64,000 nt of DNA from Bacillota bacterium (GCA_050952065.1 JBMNKF010000007.1:76412-140411), one strand, 5' to 3'; positions 2,540 to 9,222 are shown, numbered from the stretch's first letter. The notes: generated by a model from the letters alone, not told the origin. Numbers and translations: made by a program.

Positions 2540-3400
2540 ATGTGGGTTACTTGGACACTGGTAGTCTTGGCGGTTCTCCTGTGGTTTGGAGTCTCCTGGC
2601 TGTCGGCGCTTGTTGAAAAATACTCCCACAGTCTCGAATCGATCTCGGTATTGGCTATCCTAGGCGTGGCTTCCCTATGGTTCGGGAGGCAAGCTGTTGG
2701 GAAACTCGCCCCTGAGTGGACGATGGGCCCTACCCTTGGAGCGTCTTTAGTGATAGGACTTGTGGTGTTTTCCCTTCTTTCGTATGTGGTGGTCAACCTA
2801 TGGCTGGCTCTTCTGACTAAGGAATACGACCAGCGTATTGCCTCTTTGGAGGAAGAAGAGGACTCTATACTGCGGACTCTTGAGTCCATGCGATGGCAGT
2901 CGCTGAGGGCAGGTGCGTCAGAAGGTCCGATGATAAAGGAGACCCCGAAGGTTTCTCCCAAACAGAACGAAGCCGACGTCCTCGCCGACTTTGTGGCCCG
3001 ATGGGAGCAAGAAGGAGGGGCCGCTCGTATTCGGTCTTTGAAAGTATTGGAGTGGAAGGATGAGGTTTCTGCCAAGTCAGAAGATGATCTGCGGCAGTTC
3101 ATCAGCCAATTGCGCCAGGTAACCGAGACGGAGACTGACGACATTAGGAAAGAGCAAGCGAGAGTAAGGCTGGCTCTTGCAGAACTTGAGGCGTTATCCA
3201 GGACTCCCGCCAGGCGGGATTCCGAGGAATCGTGGGTGTCAAAGGACGTCAGGGACCAGAGCCCCGCACCTATAGACCTAGATCAGTCAGCCTTGAGACA
3301 GCGCCTCCAAGAGATTAATCGGTGCATCAATGTCGCCAGATCCGAAAAAGCTCTCTTTCTTAGACACAAGGTCTCCTTAAGATGGGGGAGAAGGCAATGA
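2540..3400 (+). CDS. Hypothetical membrane protein: 3 predicted TM helices plus long acidic coiled-coil region
   Basis: 286 aa. Hydrophobic N-terminus (WTLVVLAVLLWFGVSWLSALV..., ILGVASLWF, LVIGLVVFSLLSYVVVNLWLALL), then E/R/K-rich heptad-like sequence. AAGAGGTG RBS before ATG 2540. Its stop overlaps the next gene start (ATGA at 3397-3400). Confidence 0.5.
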   Translation: MWVTWTLVVLAVLLWFGVSWLSALVEKYSHSLESISVLAILGVASLWFGRQAVGKLAPEWTMGPTLGASLVIGLVVFSLLSYVVVNLWLALLTKEYDQRIASLEEEEDSILRTLESMRWQSLRAGASEGPMIKETPKVSPKQNEADVLADFVARWEQEGGAARIRSLKVLEWKDEVSAKSEDDLRQFISQLRQVTETETDDIRKEQARVRLALAELEALSRTPARRDSEESWVSKDVRDQSPAPIDLDQSALRQRLQEINRCINVARSEKALFLRHKVSLRWGRRQ

Positions 3401-3837
3401 GCCACATGAGTTCATACAAGGCGGACATAAGACTTCAAAGTGCTCTCGAAGAGGGAAGGCCCGTGGAAGAAGACCCGGGGTGGGAGATTCTTGAAGAGGC
3501 GGTGATGACAGCCGCCCAGGAGATGAATCTCGACGTCAGCCACACCATACACGACTACTATGGCCGGGGAATCTTCTGTGATTGGGCTATGACCGGACCG
3601 GAAATCCCAAGAGGGCTGGGAGTCAGTGTGGACCGGAAGACCGGAGAAGTCACTTTCGTGTGCGACACATATGGAGGGTACGAGAGGATTGCGGGTGAGA
3701 TCAAGGACAGGGTCATCCAAAACTACTCGGCCCTGTGTGTGACCAAGGCTCTGTCGGCACTGAACTACACAGTCGACGTGGATGAAGTACAGCATCCTGT
3801 TCACGGCAAGAAGGTTATGGTTAGAGGAGTGCTGTGA
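3397..3837 (+). CDS. DUF1257 (Ycf35-like) family protein
   Basis: About 146 aa from ATG 3397 (MSHMSSYKADIRLQSALEEG...). The MSH-S-IKT-I-D type N-terminus and size match my recollection of the DUF1257/Ycf35 family. ATGA overlap with upstream gene. The ORF-track start at 3382 is also possible. Confidence 0.55.
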   Translation: MSHMSSYKADIRLQSALEEGRPVEEDPGWEILEEAVMTAAQEMNLDVSHTIHDYYGRGIFCDWAMTGPEIPRGLGVSVDRKTGEVTFVCDTYGGYERIAGEIKDRVIQNYSALCVTKALSALNYTVDVDEVQHPVHGKKVMVRGVL

Positions 3838-4064
3838 TGACCAGAAGAATTGACGTGGAGGTATCCCGGGGTGGCAGAGTGAAAATGGAGTTCTCAGGCT
3901 TTCCCGGGGAAGAGTGCTTTGCCGAAGCGGAGGTCCTGCAAAATGCCCTTAGGGAACTGGGTCTTTGGGCTTTGCCCGTGACGATCACTCCCAAGACAAC
4001 AAGGGAGATCGAGTCCGAATTGCCCAGAAAGACTGCGGAAAAGCAGAAGGTGCCCGTATCATGA
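3834..4064 (+). CDS. DUF2997-like small protein (copy 1)
   Basis: 76 aa (MMTRRIDVEVSRGGRVKMEFSGFPGEECFAEAEVLQNALRELGL...). Pattern I-x-V-x(4)-G-x-V-x(3)-G-F-x-G-x-x-C-x(n)-LExxLG is typical of the ~60-70 aa DUF2997 family. GTGATGA start/stop overlap with DUF1257 gene. Confidence 0.5.
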   Translation: MMTRRIDVEVSRGGRVKMEFSGFPGEECFAEAEVLQNALRELGLWALPVTITPKTTREIESELPRKTAEKQKVPVS

Positions 4065-4243
4065 CGGCCAATGGAAACGAAGCGAATTCCCAAGTTGCCA
4101 AGTCCTATTTCGAACTGGAGATCAGAGGGGATATCATAAACGTCTACGAAAGAATGGGAGACGGCGCTACATGCCTGCTGGCTAAAGCCCTAGAAAGGCT
4201 GGGGCTCAGACTGAGAGTCCGCGTGAGTTCTCCCTGCGGTTAG
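4061..4243 (+). CDS. Second DUF2997-like mini-protein (copy 2), 60 aa
   Basis: ATG 4061 overlaps the stop of the previous gene (ATGA). Sequence MTANGNEANSQVAKSYFELEIRGDIINVYERMGDGATCLLAKALERLGLRL repeats the same E-x-E/I-x-G-x(n)-G-x-G-x-x-C-x(4)-LExLG pattern. It is embedded in the longer ORF-track entry 3965..4243. Confidence 0.4.
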   Translation: MTANGNEANSQVAKSYFELEIRGDIINVYERMGDGATCLLAKALERLGLRLRVRVSSPCG

Positions 4244-4269
4244 GAACTGGGAGAGGGAGGCCCGGGTGT

Positions 4270-5976
4270 TTGATGAGGTTTCTTGACGAATCCTGGATAC
4301 AGTCTGGTATTCTCAAGCGAAGGGCGAACTACTCGCCTATTCTGTGTTTCGAGACCGTGGATCCCAAGAGGATATATCAACTGAAGTCGTTCTTGCTGTC
4401 TTCGCCTGAATTTTCCCAGACGGAGCACTTCTTCCTGTACGACCCTTGGGAAGGTCTCGGCACGCTTCGAAAAGGTGTGGACGGTCCCCTCTTTGAGCCA
4501 TACCGAAAAAGGTCTTTAAGGGATACTCCCCTGACTTCTAGAATACGCCCGGAGGGCGGCATAGAGTTTGGTGCCTTGAAGAGTGTCTTGAAAGAGGTTG
4601 ACCCGTTCCTTAAGACTTCTCAGACTGTGTTCCTCCTCCAGAACGTTTCTGACGTGAGAGAAGCCGACACGGGGTTTCAGGCCGCTATGAGGGCGTGGGC
4701 TATCGATCCCAACATCTTGTCCAGAGGTTCCACCGTGATAATCTTGACCTCAGATGCCTCTCGCATCATGGACGATTTTACAAAGGAGTATGTTGTTGTC
4801 ATTGCCATTGACCCATCCACCAGCCAGGAGCGCGAGAGCCTTATCATGTCTGTCGGGAGAGAGTTGGGGGTAAGTCTTGACGAGTCCCGCTTGGAAAGCG
4901 CCGCGGTGGCTCTGTCGGGGCTCAACCTCCATCAAGTAGAGAGCATCCTACTCGAATCGTACCAGCGCGTCAAAGATTTCGAACCTGACATTATGAAAGA
5001 GCTCAAGTCAGAATTGGTGAAGCGGTCCGGAGTGCTGGAGGTTAGGGATCCGCAGTTCAGCTTCAAGGATATTGGCGGTTATCACGCCATCAAGGATTTC
5101 GTCTCGAAGTACATCATAAACGTCCTCAAAAGACCTGAAAAGGCCAGGCGTTTTGGCCTTGGCTTGCCCAAGGGCCTCTTGTTCTTCGGTCCCCCCGGGA
5201 CAGGGAAGAGCTTGTTTTCCAACGCTTTGGCAAGCGAAGTCCAGCTCCCGTTCATAAACCTGGTCACAGAAAACATCTATTCCAAGTGGTTGGGGGAGTC
5301 GGGCCAGAACATGAAAAACGCCATAATCATGGCGGAAAAGATGTCCCCGGCTATCGTTTTTGTTGACGAAATTGACAGATTCGGCAAAAGGACCGGCAGT
5401 TCTGCCGGTTCAGCTGAAGAAGAAACCCAGCGCGTGTTCTCGCAGTTCCTGGAGTGGTTGGGGCGACCAGACAGGGAAGCCATCATTGTTGGAACGACTA
5501 ATGTGCCAGAGCACCTCGATGAAGCTTTTCTCAGAGCGGGAAGATTCGACTACAAGATCCCCTTTCTATACCCGGGGCCTGAAGCGCGTCTGGAGATACT
5601 TCTTGTGCACCTTGGACTGTCGCCCGGTGGCAGGAGACCTCCGGTGCCTCTGGACATGAAGCCCGAAGATGTGCGCGGGTTCCTGATGGAGGCAGTTGTG
5701 CCCCTCACCAAGAATTTCTCTTGCGCGGAACTGGAAGAGCTGGTGACTAGGGCCAAGAGGATAAGTTTCGACAAAGACAGAGAGCATGTATCTGGTGATG
5801 ATCTAGTAACGGCCGCGACAACTTTTCGGATTGACTATTCGGCCCGCAGGCGAACGGTTGAGACTTGCATGATCCAGGCAAGACACTTTACCGATGATCA
5901 AACGTTCCTTGATGCTATTGAAGAAGAGAACAAAGTGTATGAGAATGGTGCTACATCTTCTAGAAATGAGGGATGA
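4270..5976 (+). CDS. Classical AAA-family ATPase (single AAA domain, CDC48/Vps4/FtsH-like clade) with unique ~270 aa N-terminal domain
   Basis: 568 aa. Walker A GPPGTGKS, Walker B VFVDEIDR, SRH region TTNVPEHLDEAFLRAGRFDYKIPF. TTG/ATG start after GGGAGG. Confidence 0.85.
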   Translation: MMRFLDESWIQSGILKRRANYSPILCFETVDPKRIYQLKSFLLSSPEFSQTEHFFLYDPWEGLGTLRKGVDGPLFEPYRKRSLRDTPLTSRIRPEGGIEFGALKSVLKEVDPFLKTSQTVFLLQNVSDVREADTGFQAAMRAWAIDPNILSRGSTVIILTSDASRIMDDFTKEYVVVIAIDPSTSQERESLIMSVGRELGVSLDESRLESAAVALSGLNLHQVESILLESYQRVKDFEPDIMKELKSELVKRSGVLEVRDPQFSFKDIGGYHAIKDFVSKYIINVLKRPEKARRFGLGLPKGLLFFGPPGTGKSLFSNALASEVQLPFINLVTENIYSKWLGESGQNMKNAIIMAEKMSPAIVFVDEIDRFGKRTGSSAGSAEEETQRVFSQFLEWLGRPDREAIIVGTTNVPEHLDEAFLRAGRFDYKIPFLYPGPEARLEILLVHLGLSPGGRRPPVPLDMKPEDVRGFLMEAVVPLTKNFSCAELEELVTRAKRISFDKDREHVSGDDLVTAATTFRIDYSARRRTVETCMIQARHFTDDQTFLDAIEEENKVYENGATSSRNEG

Positions 5977-5979
5977 GGC

Positions 5980-6210
5980 GTGAAGGCTAAGATAGAAGCT
6001 GCGCTCAACCAGATTCGCCCGTCATTACAGGCGGACGGCGGAGACGTCGAACTCGTTGATGTTTCCCAAGATGGCGTAGTCAAGGTCAAGCTTACCGGGG
6101 CTTGTGGAACCTGTCCCTTTGCTACAATGACTCTGAAAGCCGGGATCGAGAGAATCTTGAAAAAGGAGATCCCGGAAGTCAAAGAAGTCGTGGCGGTAGA
6201 TCCTACATAA
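5980..6210 (+). CDS. NifU-like (Nfu-type) Fe-S cluster domain protein
   Basis: 76 aa with GACGTCPFATMTLKAGIERIL containing the CxxC motif of the NifU C-terminal/Nfu domain. GTG start only 3 nt after the AAA ATPase stop, preceded by GAGGGATGAGG. Confidence 0.7.
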   Translation: MKAKIEAALNQIRPSLQADGGDVELVDVSQDGVVKVKLTGACGTCPFATMTLKAGIERILKKEIPEVKEVVAVDPT

Positions 6211-6552: not shown

Positions 6553-8097
6553 GTGGGGGAAGGGACTTCACAAGTAATCGTCAGTGAAGCCGTAACGGTG
6601 CCTGAGGAAAAACCCCCGGTTAGGGCGGTCATTGACTTTGTGGCGAGGACTAGGATAGACAAAGTCACGGTGTTGCCCGGCAAGGTGATTGTGGACGGTA
6701 CGGTGGACTTCGCCATCATCTACGAAGCTACTGTGGAGACTCAGACGGTTCACGTGTTTCATGCGGAGGTCAAGTTCAGTACGTTTGTGGAGATCCCAGG
6801 TGTCGAGCCTGGTATGACTGCGACCCCCACGCTTGCCATTGAGCACGCGGTCTTCCAGGTTAGCCCGGATGGAAGAACAATCACCATCCGAGCGGTCGCG
6901 GCCCTCTCGGTAAGAGTGACTCAGTCGGTGGTTATCGACGTCATAACGGACGTTTCGGGCCTGCCCGGACTCCAGGTCACCAAAGAGGTTGTGAAGGCTG
7001 AAACAGTGCTGGGTGAGGGAGAAGCCCAATACGTGGTACGGGAGAACTTGCAGATTCCCGACGCTAAGCCTGACGCGGCGCGAGTGATAGACTTCGTGTC
7101 GACCATACAGGTGAACTCCACCACAGTTCTGCCCAACAAGATAATAATCAACGGCACCATCAGCCTAAGGGTCATCTACGAAGCGGCCGTGCCCAGCCAG
7201 TCGGTTCACGTGGCTCACTTCACCATCCCCTTCGAAGCGTTTGTGGAAGTCCCGGGAGCGCAGCCGGGGATGGCGGTAATCGCGGCGGCTCAGGTTGAGT
7301 TCATCTCTATCGATGTGAATGCTACTGGTCGAGTGCTTCAGGTGAGGATCATTCTTAAGGTTACGGCAAAGGTCATCCGAGTCCAGAAGGTCCAGGTTGT
7401 GACCAACGTAGCCGGTATAGCAGATTTGGTGCTCTGGAAGGAGCTAATCAGGGTCCAAGAGGTCTTGGGTGAAAACAAATCTCAGGGGATCGTTCGAGAG
7501 ATTGTGGACGTTCCTGACGAGAAGCCATCTGTGGCTATGGTGATTGATTCCAGTTCTTCTCCGGAGGTCAAGAGAGTTATCGTGGCCCCAGGGAAAGTCA
7601 TCGTTGATGGCGCCATAGCTCAGAGGATCATCTATGAACCGCTGGATTGCCCGATGCAACAAGTGCATACGCTGCACTTTACGGTTCCTTTCTCCGAGTT
7701 TGTGGTGTTGCCAGAGGCTAAACCCGGCATGGTTGCCAGAGTGGATGTTCAGGTGGAACACGCCAATTTTGAGGTACCGCCTTCGGGAGATCCCGTTATG
7801 GCCACCAAAATCATCCAGCTCGTAGCAAGAGTGTTTAAGACCAGGGTCATCAATGTAGTGGTCAAGATTCAATTAGGCAAACCGAAACCCACCTGTACCG
7901 GTACAGTCACCGGGAACCTGGTTAACGTCAGGCAAGGTCCCGGAACCACCTATGCAGTTGTTGCCCAAGTCAATGCTGGTACGGTGGTCGCGGTACTGGA
8001 GTTCTCGCCCGATTGGGTTAAGGTAAGACTACCCAACGGAGTGGTGGGATGGATTTCCTCCGCATACTTGCGGCATGACTGCAAGCCGTTGGGGTAG
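6553..8097 (+). CDS. Secreted/spore-associated repeat protein: three ~125 aa DUF3794/SipL-like repeats plus C-terminal bacterial SH3 domain
   Basis: Internal repeats (VLGEG-x-Q-x-VV-x-E-x-V-PD-KP...V-x-VLP-KVI-x-G-x-IYEA...VH...F...F-x-FVE-PGA-PGM) recur three times. C-terminus GTVTGNLVNVRQGPGTTYAVVAQVNAGTVVAVLE...WVKVRLPNGVVGWISSAYL is SH3b-like. The true start is probably upstream of 6553 (see findings). Confidence 0.7.
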   Translation: MGEGTSQVIVSEAVTVPEEKPPVRAVIDFVARTRIDKVTVLPGKVIVDGTVDFAIIYEATVETQTVHVFHAEVKFSTFVEIPGVEPGMTATPTLAIEHAVFQVSPDGRTITIRAVAALSVRVTQSVVIDVITDVSGLPGLQVTKEVVKAETVLGEGEAQYVVRENLQIPDAKPDAARVIDFVSTIQVNSTTVLPNKIIINGTISLRVIYEAAVPSQSVHVAHFTIPFEAFVEVPGAQPGMAVIAAAQVEFISIDVNATGRVLQVRIILKVTAKVIRVQKVQVVTNVAGIADLVLWKELIRVQEVLGENKSQGIVREIVDVPDEKPSVAMVIDSSSSPEVKRVIVAPGKVIVDGAIAQRIIYEPLDCPMQQVHTLHFTVPFSEFVVLPEAKPGMVARVDVQVEHANFEVPPSGDPVMATKIIQLVARVFKTRVINVVVKIQLGKPKPTCTGTVTGNLVNVRQGPGTTYAVVAQVNAGTVVAVLEFSPDWVKVRLPNGVVGWISSAYLRHDCKPLG

Positions 8098-8409: not shown

Positions 8410-9222
8410 ATGGGAACCAAAAGAAAGGTAGCACTTACAGCGGTCCTGGTCCTGTCTTTGGTGCTTCTATCAGGAAGTGCCCTGGCCGGCGGCTATGCGC
8501 GGTACATGACGCCGGCTCCCGATGGAGGCACACTCTTCATCTTCACTCGAGGGTCTCGTGGCCTTGACCTCATTATGAGGCTTTTCTATGGGTTTGGTGC
8601 CTACCCGTGGGACTTCCTCAAGCCTGTCAGGCCAGACACGCCGCCTCTGCCTGCGGATCCAATCGAGGCTCCGGACCCCACTCCGGAGCCGGAGCCCGCT
8701 CCCGAGCCTGATCCGGTCCCAGACCCGGTGCCGGAACCAGAACCTGAACCTGAGCCGGAGCCTGTTCCAGAGCCTGATCCGGAGCCCGACACTGAACCCG
8801 AGAAACCGGCTTCCGAAGAAGAGCCCTCAACTCCCGGCCTTACTGATATGGAGCAAGGTATGGTGGATCTGGTGAACGAGGAGAGGGCGAAGGCAGGTCT
8901 TAAGCCTTTGGCAGTAGACATGAGATTGGTGGAACTAGCTCGAAAGAAGAGTCAGGATATGATCGACAAAGGATACTTCTCTCACAACTCGCCTACCTAC
9001 GGTTCGCCCTTTGACATGATGAAGGCAGCCGGCATTTCGTACCGGATGGCAGGAGAGAACCTGGCAGGGGCGCCCAGTCTCCAATCTGCTCACAAGGGGC
9101 TGATGGAGAGCGAAGGCCACAGACGGAACATACTCAACCCGGCTTTCGACCACATAGGAATAGGCATCATTCAGGGCGGCCCTTATGGCTACATGTTCAC
9201 GCAGATGTTTACAGGGCAGTAG
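8410..9222 (+). CDS. Secreted CAP/SCP/PR-1 (YkwD-type) domain protein with Pro/Glu-rich linker
   Basis: Signal peptide (KVALTAVLVLSLVLLSGSALA), (PE)n/(PEP)n linker, C-terminal CAP domain motifs (GYFSHNSP, GENLA, GHRRNIL, HIGIG). Confidence 0.75.
   Translation: MGTKRKVALTAVLVLSLVLLSGSALAGGYARYMTPAPDGGTLFIFTRGSRGLDLIMRLFYGFGAYPWDFLKPVRPDTPPLPADPIEAPDPTPEPEPAPEPDPVPDPVPEPEPEPEPEPVPEPDPEPDTEPEKPASEEEPSTPGLTDMEQGMVDLVNEERAKAGLKPLAVDMRLVELARKKSQDMIDKGYFSHNSPTYGSPFDMMKAAGISYRMAGENLAGAPSLQSAHKGLMESEGHRRNILNPAFDHIGIGIIQGGPYGYMFTQMFTGQ

Follow-up and report, generated by a model that had tools for sequence, protein, structure and literature searches.

An uncharacterised five-gene operon, carried mostly by Bacillota, that may encode a membrane-tethered AAA+ unfoldase with small DUF1257- and DUF2997-type partners

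What do the DUF1257/Ycf35 and DUF2997 proteins, which have stood as "conserved hypothetical" entries in cyanobacteria and algal plastids for decades, do when they are encoded beside a AAA ATPase? The question is raised by positions 2540-5976 of a 64,000-nucleotide stretch of DNA from a Bacillota bacterium (GCA_050952065.1 JBMNKF010000007.1:76412-140411), the whole of which is called the window here. The region is a single operon of five genes (g1 to g5), widely conserved and uncharacterised, in which predicted relatives of both protein types are placed in a fixed cassette that offers a concrete route to the function of Ycf35-type proteins. In our reading, to which we give slightly better than an even chance, the operon specifies a membrane-tethered AAA+ unfoldase or segregase in which the DUF1257 and DUF2997 proteins act as adaptor and thiol chemistry takes part.

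Operon architecture and conservation

Motifs from the N-terminal domain of the g5 ATPase were used to scan one genome per species as well as metagenome contigs, which returned 75 and 63 loci, respectively, and local profile searches on the open reading frames (ORFs) of these loci yielded a set of 128 unique loci (L numbers below denote individual loci). All five genes were found in 88 of them, with identical order and strand throughout and with a g1 orthologue directly upstream of g2 in 88/88, while g1 to g4 were conserved at the protein level over 113-128 unique loci. The carriers were mostly Bacillota, namely Fermentithermobacillaceae, Symbiobacterium, Thermaerobacter, and metagenome-assembled genomes (MAGs) of Clostridia, together with a few loci from Chloroflexota, Acetothermia, Nitrospirae, and Dehalococcoidales; the labels Acetobacteraceae, Pseudomonadota, and Nitratifractor on some module loci may be binning errors.

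The translational coupling proposed by the initial annotation is real, the overlapping stop and start codons being read straight from the sequence (Table 1). Of the overlaps it listed, the two ATGA sites stand as given (3397-3400 and 4061-4064), whereas GTGATGA comprises seven bases and ends at 3840 instead of 3839. The stop codon of g2 (TGA, 3835-3837) overlaps the start of g3, which is either the ATG at 3837 or the GTG at 3834. The beginning of the module, previously set at 3397, had to be moved to 2540, since the g1 stop overlaps the g2 start at 3397-3400 and g1 is therefore part of the unit. Stop/start overlaps were frequent at all junctions of the 88 complete loci, and an NTGA-type overlap occupied the g3/g4 junction in 68 of these. 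The g5 gene starts at the TTG at 4270 or the ATG at 4273, 27-30 nt past g4, with the strong Shine-Dalgarno-like run GGGAGAGGGAGG ahead of it. A simple scan yielded no convincing internal promoter or terminator.

Synteny of the DUF1257-like, DUF2997-like, and ATPase genes, put forward as a test in the initial annotation, held in all 88 complete loci and extended to distant relatives. On the contigs of nine DUF1257 relatives with 23-30% identity, a small DUF2997-like gene, separate or fused, lay beside the DUF1257 gene in all nine cases, and a AAA ATPase of 531-640 amino acids (aa) in eight, the neighbour in the ninth (L152) being truncated by the contig end. Seven of the nine distant ATPase N-terminal halves, including that of L152, matched the window N-domain profile (E 5e-66 to 7e-6), which gave no match in the L144 and L153 ATPases. 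Membrane and coiled-coil partners resembling g1 were present in three of the nine (L151 and L152 by profile matches, L142 by eye). In addition, g2 and g3 form a single polypeptide in six loci (L075, L076, L086, L149, L151, and L152), and one 818-aa ORF at L091:1264-3720 is a candidate fusion of DUF1257, DUF2997, and ATPase.

The flanks of the module vary by clade and contain opp transporter genes, histidine biosynthesis genes, or, as in the window, dnaE/rsmD. The flank analysis revealed no sixth conserved gene, the NifU, AIR-synthase-like, and SipL genes being lineage-specific. In the window, a 76-aa NifU-like (Nfu) gene (5980-6210; PF01106, E 3.4e-30) begins 4 nt past the ATPase stop and is probably co-transcribed with the module. 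On the other side, a gene for a protein of the AIR-synthase superfamily (HypE/SelD/ThiL-like, under every NCBIfam cut-off) occupies 1502-2512, ends 27 nt ahead of g1 on the same strand, and is found upstream in about 32 related loci. Farther downstream, two neighbours suggest a spore-forming host: the product of 6553-8097 has three SipL/SPOCS repeats and, at its C-terminus, an SH3 domain, and that of 8410-9222 belongs to the YkwD family and contains a long linker rich in Pro and Glu. Three other loci showed features of their own. An insertion-sequence-like segment at L034:6202-7854 (Clostridiales MAG), carrying two resolvase-like ORFs and a TnpB/OrfB-like ORF recognized by eye, splits g4 from g5. 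Upstream of the module, L075:4757-5900 yields the repeated peptide ERPRNPIGDGN / GKAEKPHRGWK on translation in all frames, a sign of regularly spaced DNA repeats, possibly CRISPR (clustered regularly interspaced short palindromic repeats). Finally, a gene for an AmmeMemoRadiSam-type radical SAM enzyme (L151:4617-5714; TIGR04337, E 7e-98) overlaps the ATPase stop.

Table 1. Coordinates of the genes, junctions, and ATPase features in the window.
Feature	Coordinates	Strand	Length	Basis
g1	2540-3400	+	286 aa	
g2	3397-3837	+	146 aa	
g3	3837-4064	+	75 aa	
g4	4061-4243	+	60 aa	
g5	4273-5976	+	567 aa	
ATGA, g1 stop over g2 ATG	3397-3400	+		direct sequence reading
GTGATGA, g2/g3 stop/start overlap	3834-3840	+		direct sequence reading
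ATGA, g3 stop over g4 start	4061-4064	+		direct sequence reading
g5 N-terminal half (aa 1-258), predicted degenerate AAA module	4273-5046	+		
g5 C-terminal half, complete classical AAA motor and lid	5047-5976	+		
Walker A, GPPGTGKS	5188-5211	+		
Pore loop, KWLG	5284-5295	+		
Walker B, DE	5365-5370	+		
Arginines R421/R424 of the second region of homology	5533-5544	+		

The encoded proteins

The C-terminal half of g5 contains the intact AAA motor that had been described: it matches PF00004 with an E value of 1.3e-30, and 60 homologues show no variation in GPPGTGKS, DE, KWLGES, the sensor-1 TTN, and R421/R424. The AAA_lid_3 model stayed below its cut-off of 27.2 bits with a score of 21.8. In the PDB, the motor was closest in sequence to the D2 domains of VAT/Cdc48/p97 (E about 1e-67), and its pore loop is a threading loop of the Cdc48-D2/Vps4 type, which supports an unfoldase. 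Names of the type SpoVK/Ycf46/Vps4 given to relatives by JGI are a COG label only. The N-terminal half had been regarded as a unique domain; the structure model and a comparison with tandem-AAA folds indicate instead a degenerate first AAA module that would be devoid of a nucleotide site. In the model, it forms an alpha/beta core with a four-helix lid; it lacks a P-loop and a Walker B motif, bears ILCFETVDPKR at the Walker A position, and has the signature motifs YSPxxxFETxDPKR and GLNLHQxES. Sequence similarity between the two halves was undetected by hhalign.

For g2, the N-terminus MSHMSSYK and the length of 146 aa fit the MSH motif and the size of about 120-150 aa of DUF1257. M1 and S2 are nearly invariant among 139 g2 relatives, and a Met-Ser-His start has been described as a hallmark of Ycf35 (PMC13060386). 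The assignment to DUF1257 made in the initial annotation could not be reproduced by a direct hmmscan, as g2 gave no match to PF06868 even at E <= 0.1 (gathering scores are 22.2 bits for PF06868 and 24.1 bits for PF11211), and the precomputed Pfam annotation was blank for 31 of 31 orthologues. It was recovered at the level of the family, where a profile of the 31 orthologues matched P0180, P0182, P0185, P0197, and P0213 with E values from 9e-16 to 3e-10, and these proteins pass the PF06868 cut-off with 23.4-29.7 bits; altogether, 20 of the 139 relatives were Pfam-positive. Thus, g2 is predicted to be a remote DUF1257/Ycf35 homologue, visible through the family profile and not through Pfam itself. 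Its predicted fold is alpha+beta, TBP-like/KA1-like. Profile searches recovered no PDB relatives of g2 or g3, in line with the earlier statement that the module has no known function and with the description of Ycf35 as uncharacterised in the literature (PMC13060386). One viral protein with the g2 fold was found in BFVD (E 4e-5), and typical DUF1257 relatives match phrog_20456. The conserved Ser2 also brought an HslV-like Ntn hydrolase into consideration for g2, a candidate that was ruled out because its size and predicted fold are unsuitable. Searches of g1 to g4 against Pfam, NCBIfam, PADLOC, and PHROGs returned nothing beyond a sub-threshold DUF2997 match for g3.

This match (PF11211) reached 18.1 bits with an E value of 0.0025, under the cut-off, so that the proposed DUF2997 identity of the 75-aa protein does not stand on its own hmmscan result, yet it does stand for the family, as 37 of 51 orthologues matched PF11211 at E <= 0.01 (best 1.6e-7) and no other family was matched; a weak DUF2997 flag was also present on precomputed neighbours in L001 and L145. 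By these family matches, g3 is assigned to DUF2997 as a predicted member. Its invariant residues are G21, C27 (codon 3915-3917), L38, G42, and K53, and the motif G-[FY]-x-G-x-x-C is invariant among its orthologues. Read by eye from the residue pattern, the layout is beta-beta-(G-F-x-G-x-x-C loop)-helix-beta, and Cys27 lies at the start of the helix, which is placed from this pattern only. The g4 gene ends with TGC GGT TAG (4235-4243), i.e., Cys-Gly-stop, and the C-terminal Cys-Gly was found in 112 of 113 unique orthologues, making this protein the most distinctive part of the module. Alignment of the g3 and g4 profiles with hhalign (probability 88%, E 3.1e-6) points to g4 as a putative DUF2997-like paralogue without the GFxGxxC loop. 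Mini-ORFs ending in Cys-Gly also occurred in five of the nine distant modules (L142, L147, L149, L151, and L153), with the ends WCG, MCG, PCG, ICG, plus an uncalled GLCG. At the g4 position of two Ktedonobacteria-type loci (L143:6720-7028 and L144:6185-6472), there is a longer small protein with a C-x-H-C-V motif and the C-terminus YVCP or ...AQGGE, the latter recalling the GGE end of Pup.

According to hydropathy, g1 begins with three hydrophobic helices (about aa 1-25, 31-49, and 62-93), and hydropathy together with conservation predicts that the rest of the protein, about 190 aa, is a coiled coil in the cytoplasm, including the conserved motif W-x4-G-x-A-R-I-R-S-L-K-V-x-E-W at aa 155-172. 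No Pfam family recurred, any single one being matched by at most 2 of 47 members, and a PDB profile search returned generic coiled-coil similarity only, with no relative. We consider g1 a probable three-helix membrane anchor with a coiled coil.

Proposed mechanism and rival explanations

In the mechanism that we propose for the membrane-tethered unfoldase, g5 would form a two-tier ring in which the second tier alone hydrolyses ATP and threads polypeptide, while the dead first ring would serve as a docking platform. A g2-g3(-g4) heteromer on the first ring may act as a client-recognition adaptor, by analogy with Ufd1-Npl4/Cdc48 or SspB/ClpX; the position of g2 and g3 at the N-terminal face is suggested because of the natural g2-g3(-ATPase) fusions, with which the earlier guess of small adaptor proteins is also consistent. 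The coiled coil of g1 would hold or gate the complex at the membrane, and ATP hydrolysis in the second ring would thread, unfold, or extract the client. Cys27 of g3 and the terminal Cys-Gly arm of g4 may capture or process the client through a disulfide, persulfide, thioester, or metal. The expected output would be disassembly or extraction and not degradation, because the operon encodes no protease. Several points weigh against this picture. Physical interaction, ATPase activity, and the client are proposals drawn from sequence, and instead of being adaptors, g2 to g4 could serve as clients or regulators. The conserved thiols hint at chemistry beyond a plain adaptor model. The PDB and Pfam searches left g1 and the adaptor without relatives of known function, and confidence in the motor half of the g5 model is only moderate (mean predicted local distance difference test score 76, predicted template modelling score 0.53). 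The g4 gene is absent in L052, L075, L076, L086, L091, and L140 and is therefore not essential to the core.

The rival explanations are more specific than the unfoldase model, and not all of them exclude it. In one, which we regard as unlikely, the module serves metal, iron-sulfur, or sulfur trafficking: the Cys of g3 and the Cys-Gly of g4 would bind a metal, cluster, or persulfide, and the ATPase would drive insertion into or extraction from a client, much as Bcs1, CbbQ, and NorQ, which are AAA proteins, assist proteins that contain cofactors. Glutathione ends in Cys-Gly, and the g4 terminus is chemically similar. The ATPases usual in cofactor insertion are MoxR-type, an AAA+ clade distinct from that of g5, which argues against such a role, as does the presence of one conserved Cys per small protein. 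The G-F-x-G-x-x-C loop followed by a helix resembles an HMA metal loop, but the tool match was non-significant (E 0.91) and significant similarity to metal-binding families was not found. The NifU-like gene directly behind the ATPase of the window fits sulfur trafficking, though this adjacency occurs in only about eight loci and is lineage-specific. Further points in its favour come from photosynthetic lineages, namely a conserved cyanobacterial cluster of DUF2997, ycf35 (DUF1257), and the ferredoxin gene fed7 (PMC4284462) and the loss of ycf35 and ycf46 from red-algal plastids jointly with ycf34, pbsA, and grx (PMC5940233). A second possibility, which we find improbable, is that g4 is covalently linked to clients through its Cys-Gly end (thioester, disulfide, or isopeptide), with the g3 Cys as carrier and the ATPase unfolding the tagged proteins, an E1-independent counterpart of ubiquitin-Cdc48 or Pup-Mpa. 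In four independent lineages, Pfam matches and local profiles place genes for ubiquitin-like conjugation beside members of this ATPase family. In L077:7878-12218, L079, L080, and L081:9-4451, the order is ATPase, Multi_ubiq, Multi_ubiq, Prok-E2_E, and ThiF E1, these operons have no g1-g4, and the E1 shows a JAB-like HxHx7Sx2D motif, by eye only. In a Nitrospirae MAG (L078:5916-11924), a small beta-grasp-like gene, an E2-like gene, and a gene for a 582-aa ThiF protein are interspersed among g1-g5, and at L126:101-4263 the genes ahead of g2-g5 encode a ThiF-like E1 and, as judged by eye, a membrane-helix/SH3-like protein. The literature searched does not mention a AAA partner of bacterial ubiquitin-like systems. 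The invariant terminal Gly of g4 on a flexible tail, as in ubiquitin-like proteins, and the g3 Cys at a helix N-terminus in the residue pattern, a position typical of reactive thiols, are also consistent with tagging. It is equally doubtful that this pathway is evolutionarily interchangeable with Multi_ubiq/E2/E1-JAB cassettes, with g4 as a thiol-linked tag or swinging thiol arm. An adenylating or ligating enzyme is absent from the window module and from nearly all Bacillota loci, ubiquitin-like adjacency is limited to about 4 of 128 loci, the terminus is Cys-Gly and not Gly-Gly, several lineages lack g4, and a beta-grasp domain is larger than the beta-beta-alpha-beta core predicted here. If true, the tagging pathway would be a bacterial counterpart of ubiquitin-Cdc48 and would give a biochemical role to plastid and cyanobacterial Ycf35.

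A conflict system directed at phages or mobile elements, in which the ATPase and its partners sense or disable an invader with the help of accessory effectors, has in our view a similarly small chance of being correct. Distant copies often have mobile or defensive neighbours: BREX and NACHT-caspase genes adjoin the module in L145/L146, HNH and MazG-like genes in L149, integrase/transposase genes in L143, LPD29 and DUF488 genes in L144, and STIV_B116-like and LAGLIDADG genes in L147/L148. Consequently, the housekeeping context noted in the initial annotation applies to the family of the window, where about 30 loci share a stable chromosomal setting of dnaE, rsmD, the AIR-synthase-like gene, and sipL around the module, but not in general, and this stability speaks against a role in conflict. 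The AAA domain of g5 scores on IetA/IteA models (PADLOC 1.6e-28, NCBIfam 8e-24); however, this match reflects the generic AAA core, the IetS protease partner is absent, and g1-g4 had no PADLOC match. The phrog_20456 and BFVD matches of the DUF1257 side and the resemblance of the Multi_ubiq/E2/E1 cassettes to Bil-type defence operons (bioRxiv 10.1101/2023.09.04.556158) also favour conflict. On the other hand, no plasmid or viral copy of the ATPase N-domain emerged, as tblastn of a plasmid collection with g2 and the ATPase N-domain and a search of viral contigs with the N-domain alignment both gave zero matches, and in cyanobacteria and plastids ycf35 and ycf46 belong to the conserved stress or core genes. 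Lastly, the small ORFs might be spurious or the adjacency accidental, with no system at all, given that the 60-aa ORF has no database family and the 146-aa protein no direct Pfam match. We attach next to no probability to this, as it is refuted by protein-level conservation over 113-128 unique loci, invariant residues, fixed gene order, and fusions.

Comparison with known systems

The closest known entities are the Ycf35/DUF2997/Ycf46 genes of cyanobacteria and red-lineage plastids, themselves uncharacterised, with slr0373-slr0374(ycf46)-slr0376 and Synpcc7942_0416-0418 as putative examples in which slr0373 and slr0376 may be DUF1257 and DUF2997 genes. The N-terminal motif of g5 may also have a counterpart in Ycf46. 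Next to ycf46 in a stress operon, slr0373 and slr0376 are termed hypothetical proteins; stress and ppGpp induce this operon in cyanobacteria, and Ycf46 has been reported as a KaiC interactor (PMC7496141; bioRxiv 10.1101/2025.07.21.665879). Among 127 red-algal plastomes, ycf35 (DUF1257) and ycf46 (AAA) are kept or lost jointly (PMC5940233). With this group, the window module would share the remote DUF1257 protein with its MSH start and the DUF2997 protein. In contrast, the window proteins lie under the Pfam thresholds, the module adds the conserved g1 and the Cys-Gly-tailed g4, and its host group consists of anaerobic, non-photosynthetic Bacillota. The genome scan with the ATPase N-domain motifs returned no locus labelled cyanobacterial, and a homologue search with a diverse DUF1257 alignment, which passes through a word prefilter, returned mostly the window's own family and did not reach cyanobacterial sequences. 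Relatives that looked cyanobacterial proved on cluster look-up to be Ktedonobacteria or metagenome proteins.

Like the Pup-Mpa/ARC and ubiquitin-like operons, the module encodes a small Gly-ended protein beside a classical AAA unfoldase. Unlike the ubiquitin-like, Pup, and Bil-type systems, the window module has no E1, E2, JAB, or PafA-like ligase, and E1/E2/JAB are absent in the Bacillota loci; g4 ends in Cys-Gly and not in the Gly-Gly or Gly-Gly-Gln of ubiquitin-like proteins and Pup, and the coiled-coil/OB N-domain of Mpa/ARC is not seen in the g5 model. With IetAS, the module has in common the scores of its AAA core on IetA/IteA models, whereas NF042959 reached 84.5 against 510 bits, the N-domain and partner genes differ, and an IetS-like protease lies neither in nor beside the module. 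Regarding Cdc48/p97/VAT, the tandem-AAA fold is shared and nothing further: unlike these proteins, Rix7/NVL, and Pex1/Pex6, the first module of g5 lacks Walker A and B, no double-psi-barrel N-domain is present in the g5 model, and the NCBIfam CDC48 score is 131.8 bits against a cut-off of 802. In contrast to Cdc48 with Ufd1-Npl4, the putative cofactors g2-g4 come from unrelated, uncharacterised families, and unlike type II AAA ATPases, membrane tethering is predicted to occur via a separate coiled-coil protein. The module may reveal a new bacterial coupling of small-protein and thiol chemistry to ATP-driven unfolding. By analogy, it would work like a Cdc48-type, cofactor-guided unfoldase, yet it stands outside the Cdc48, Pup-Mpa, Bil, and IetAS families, because it fails the defining features of each.

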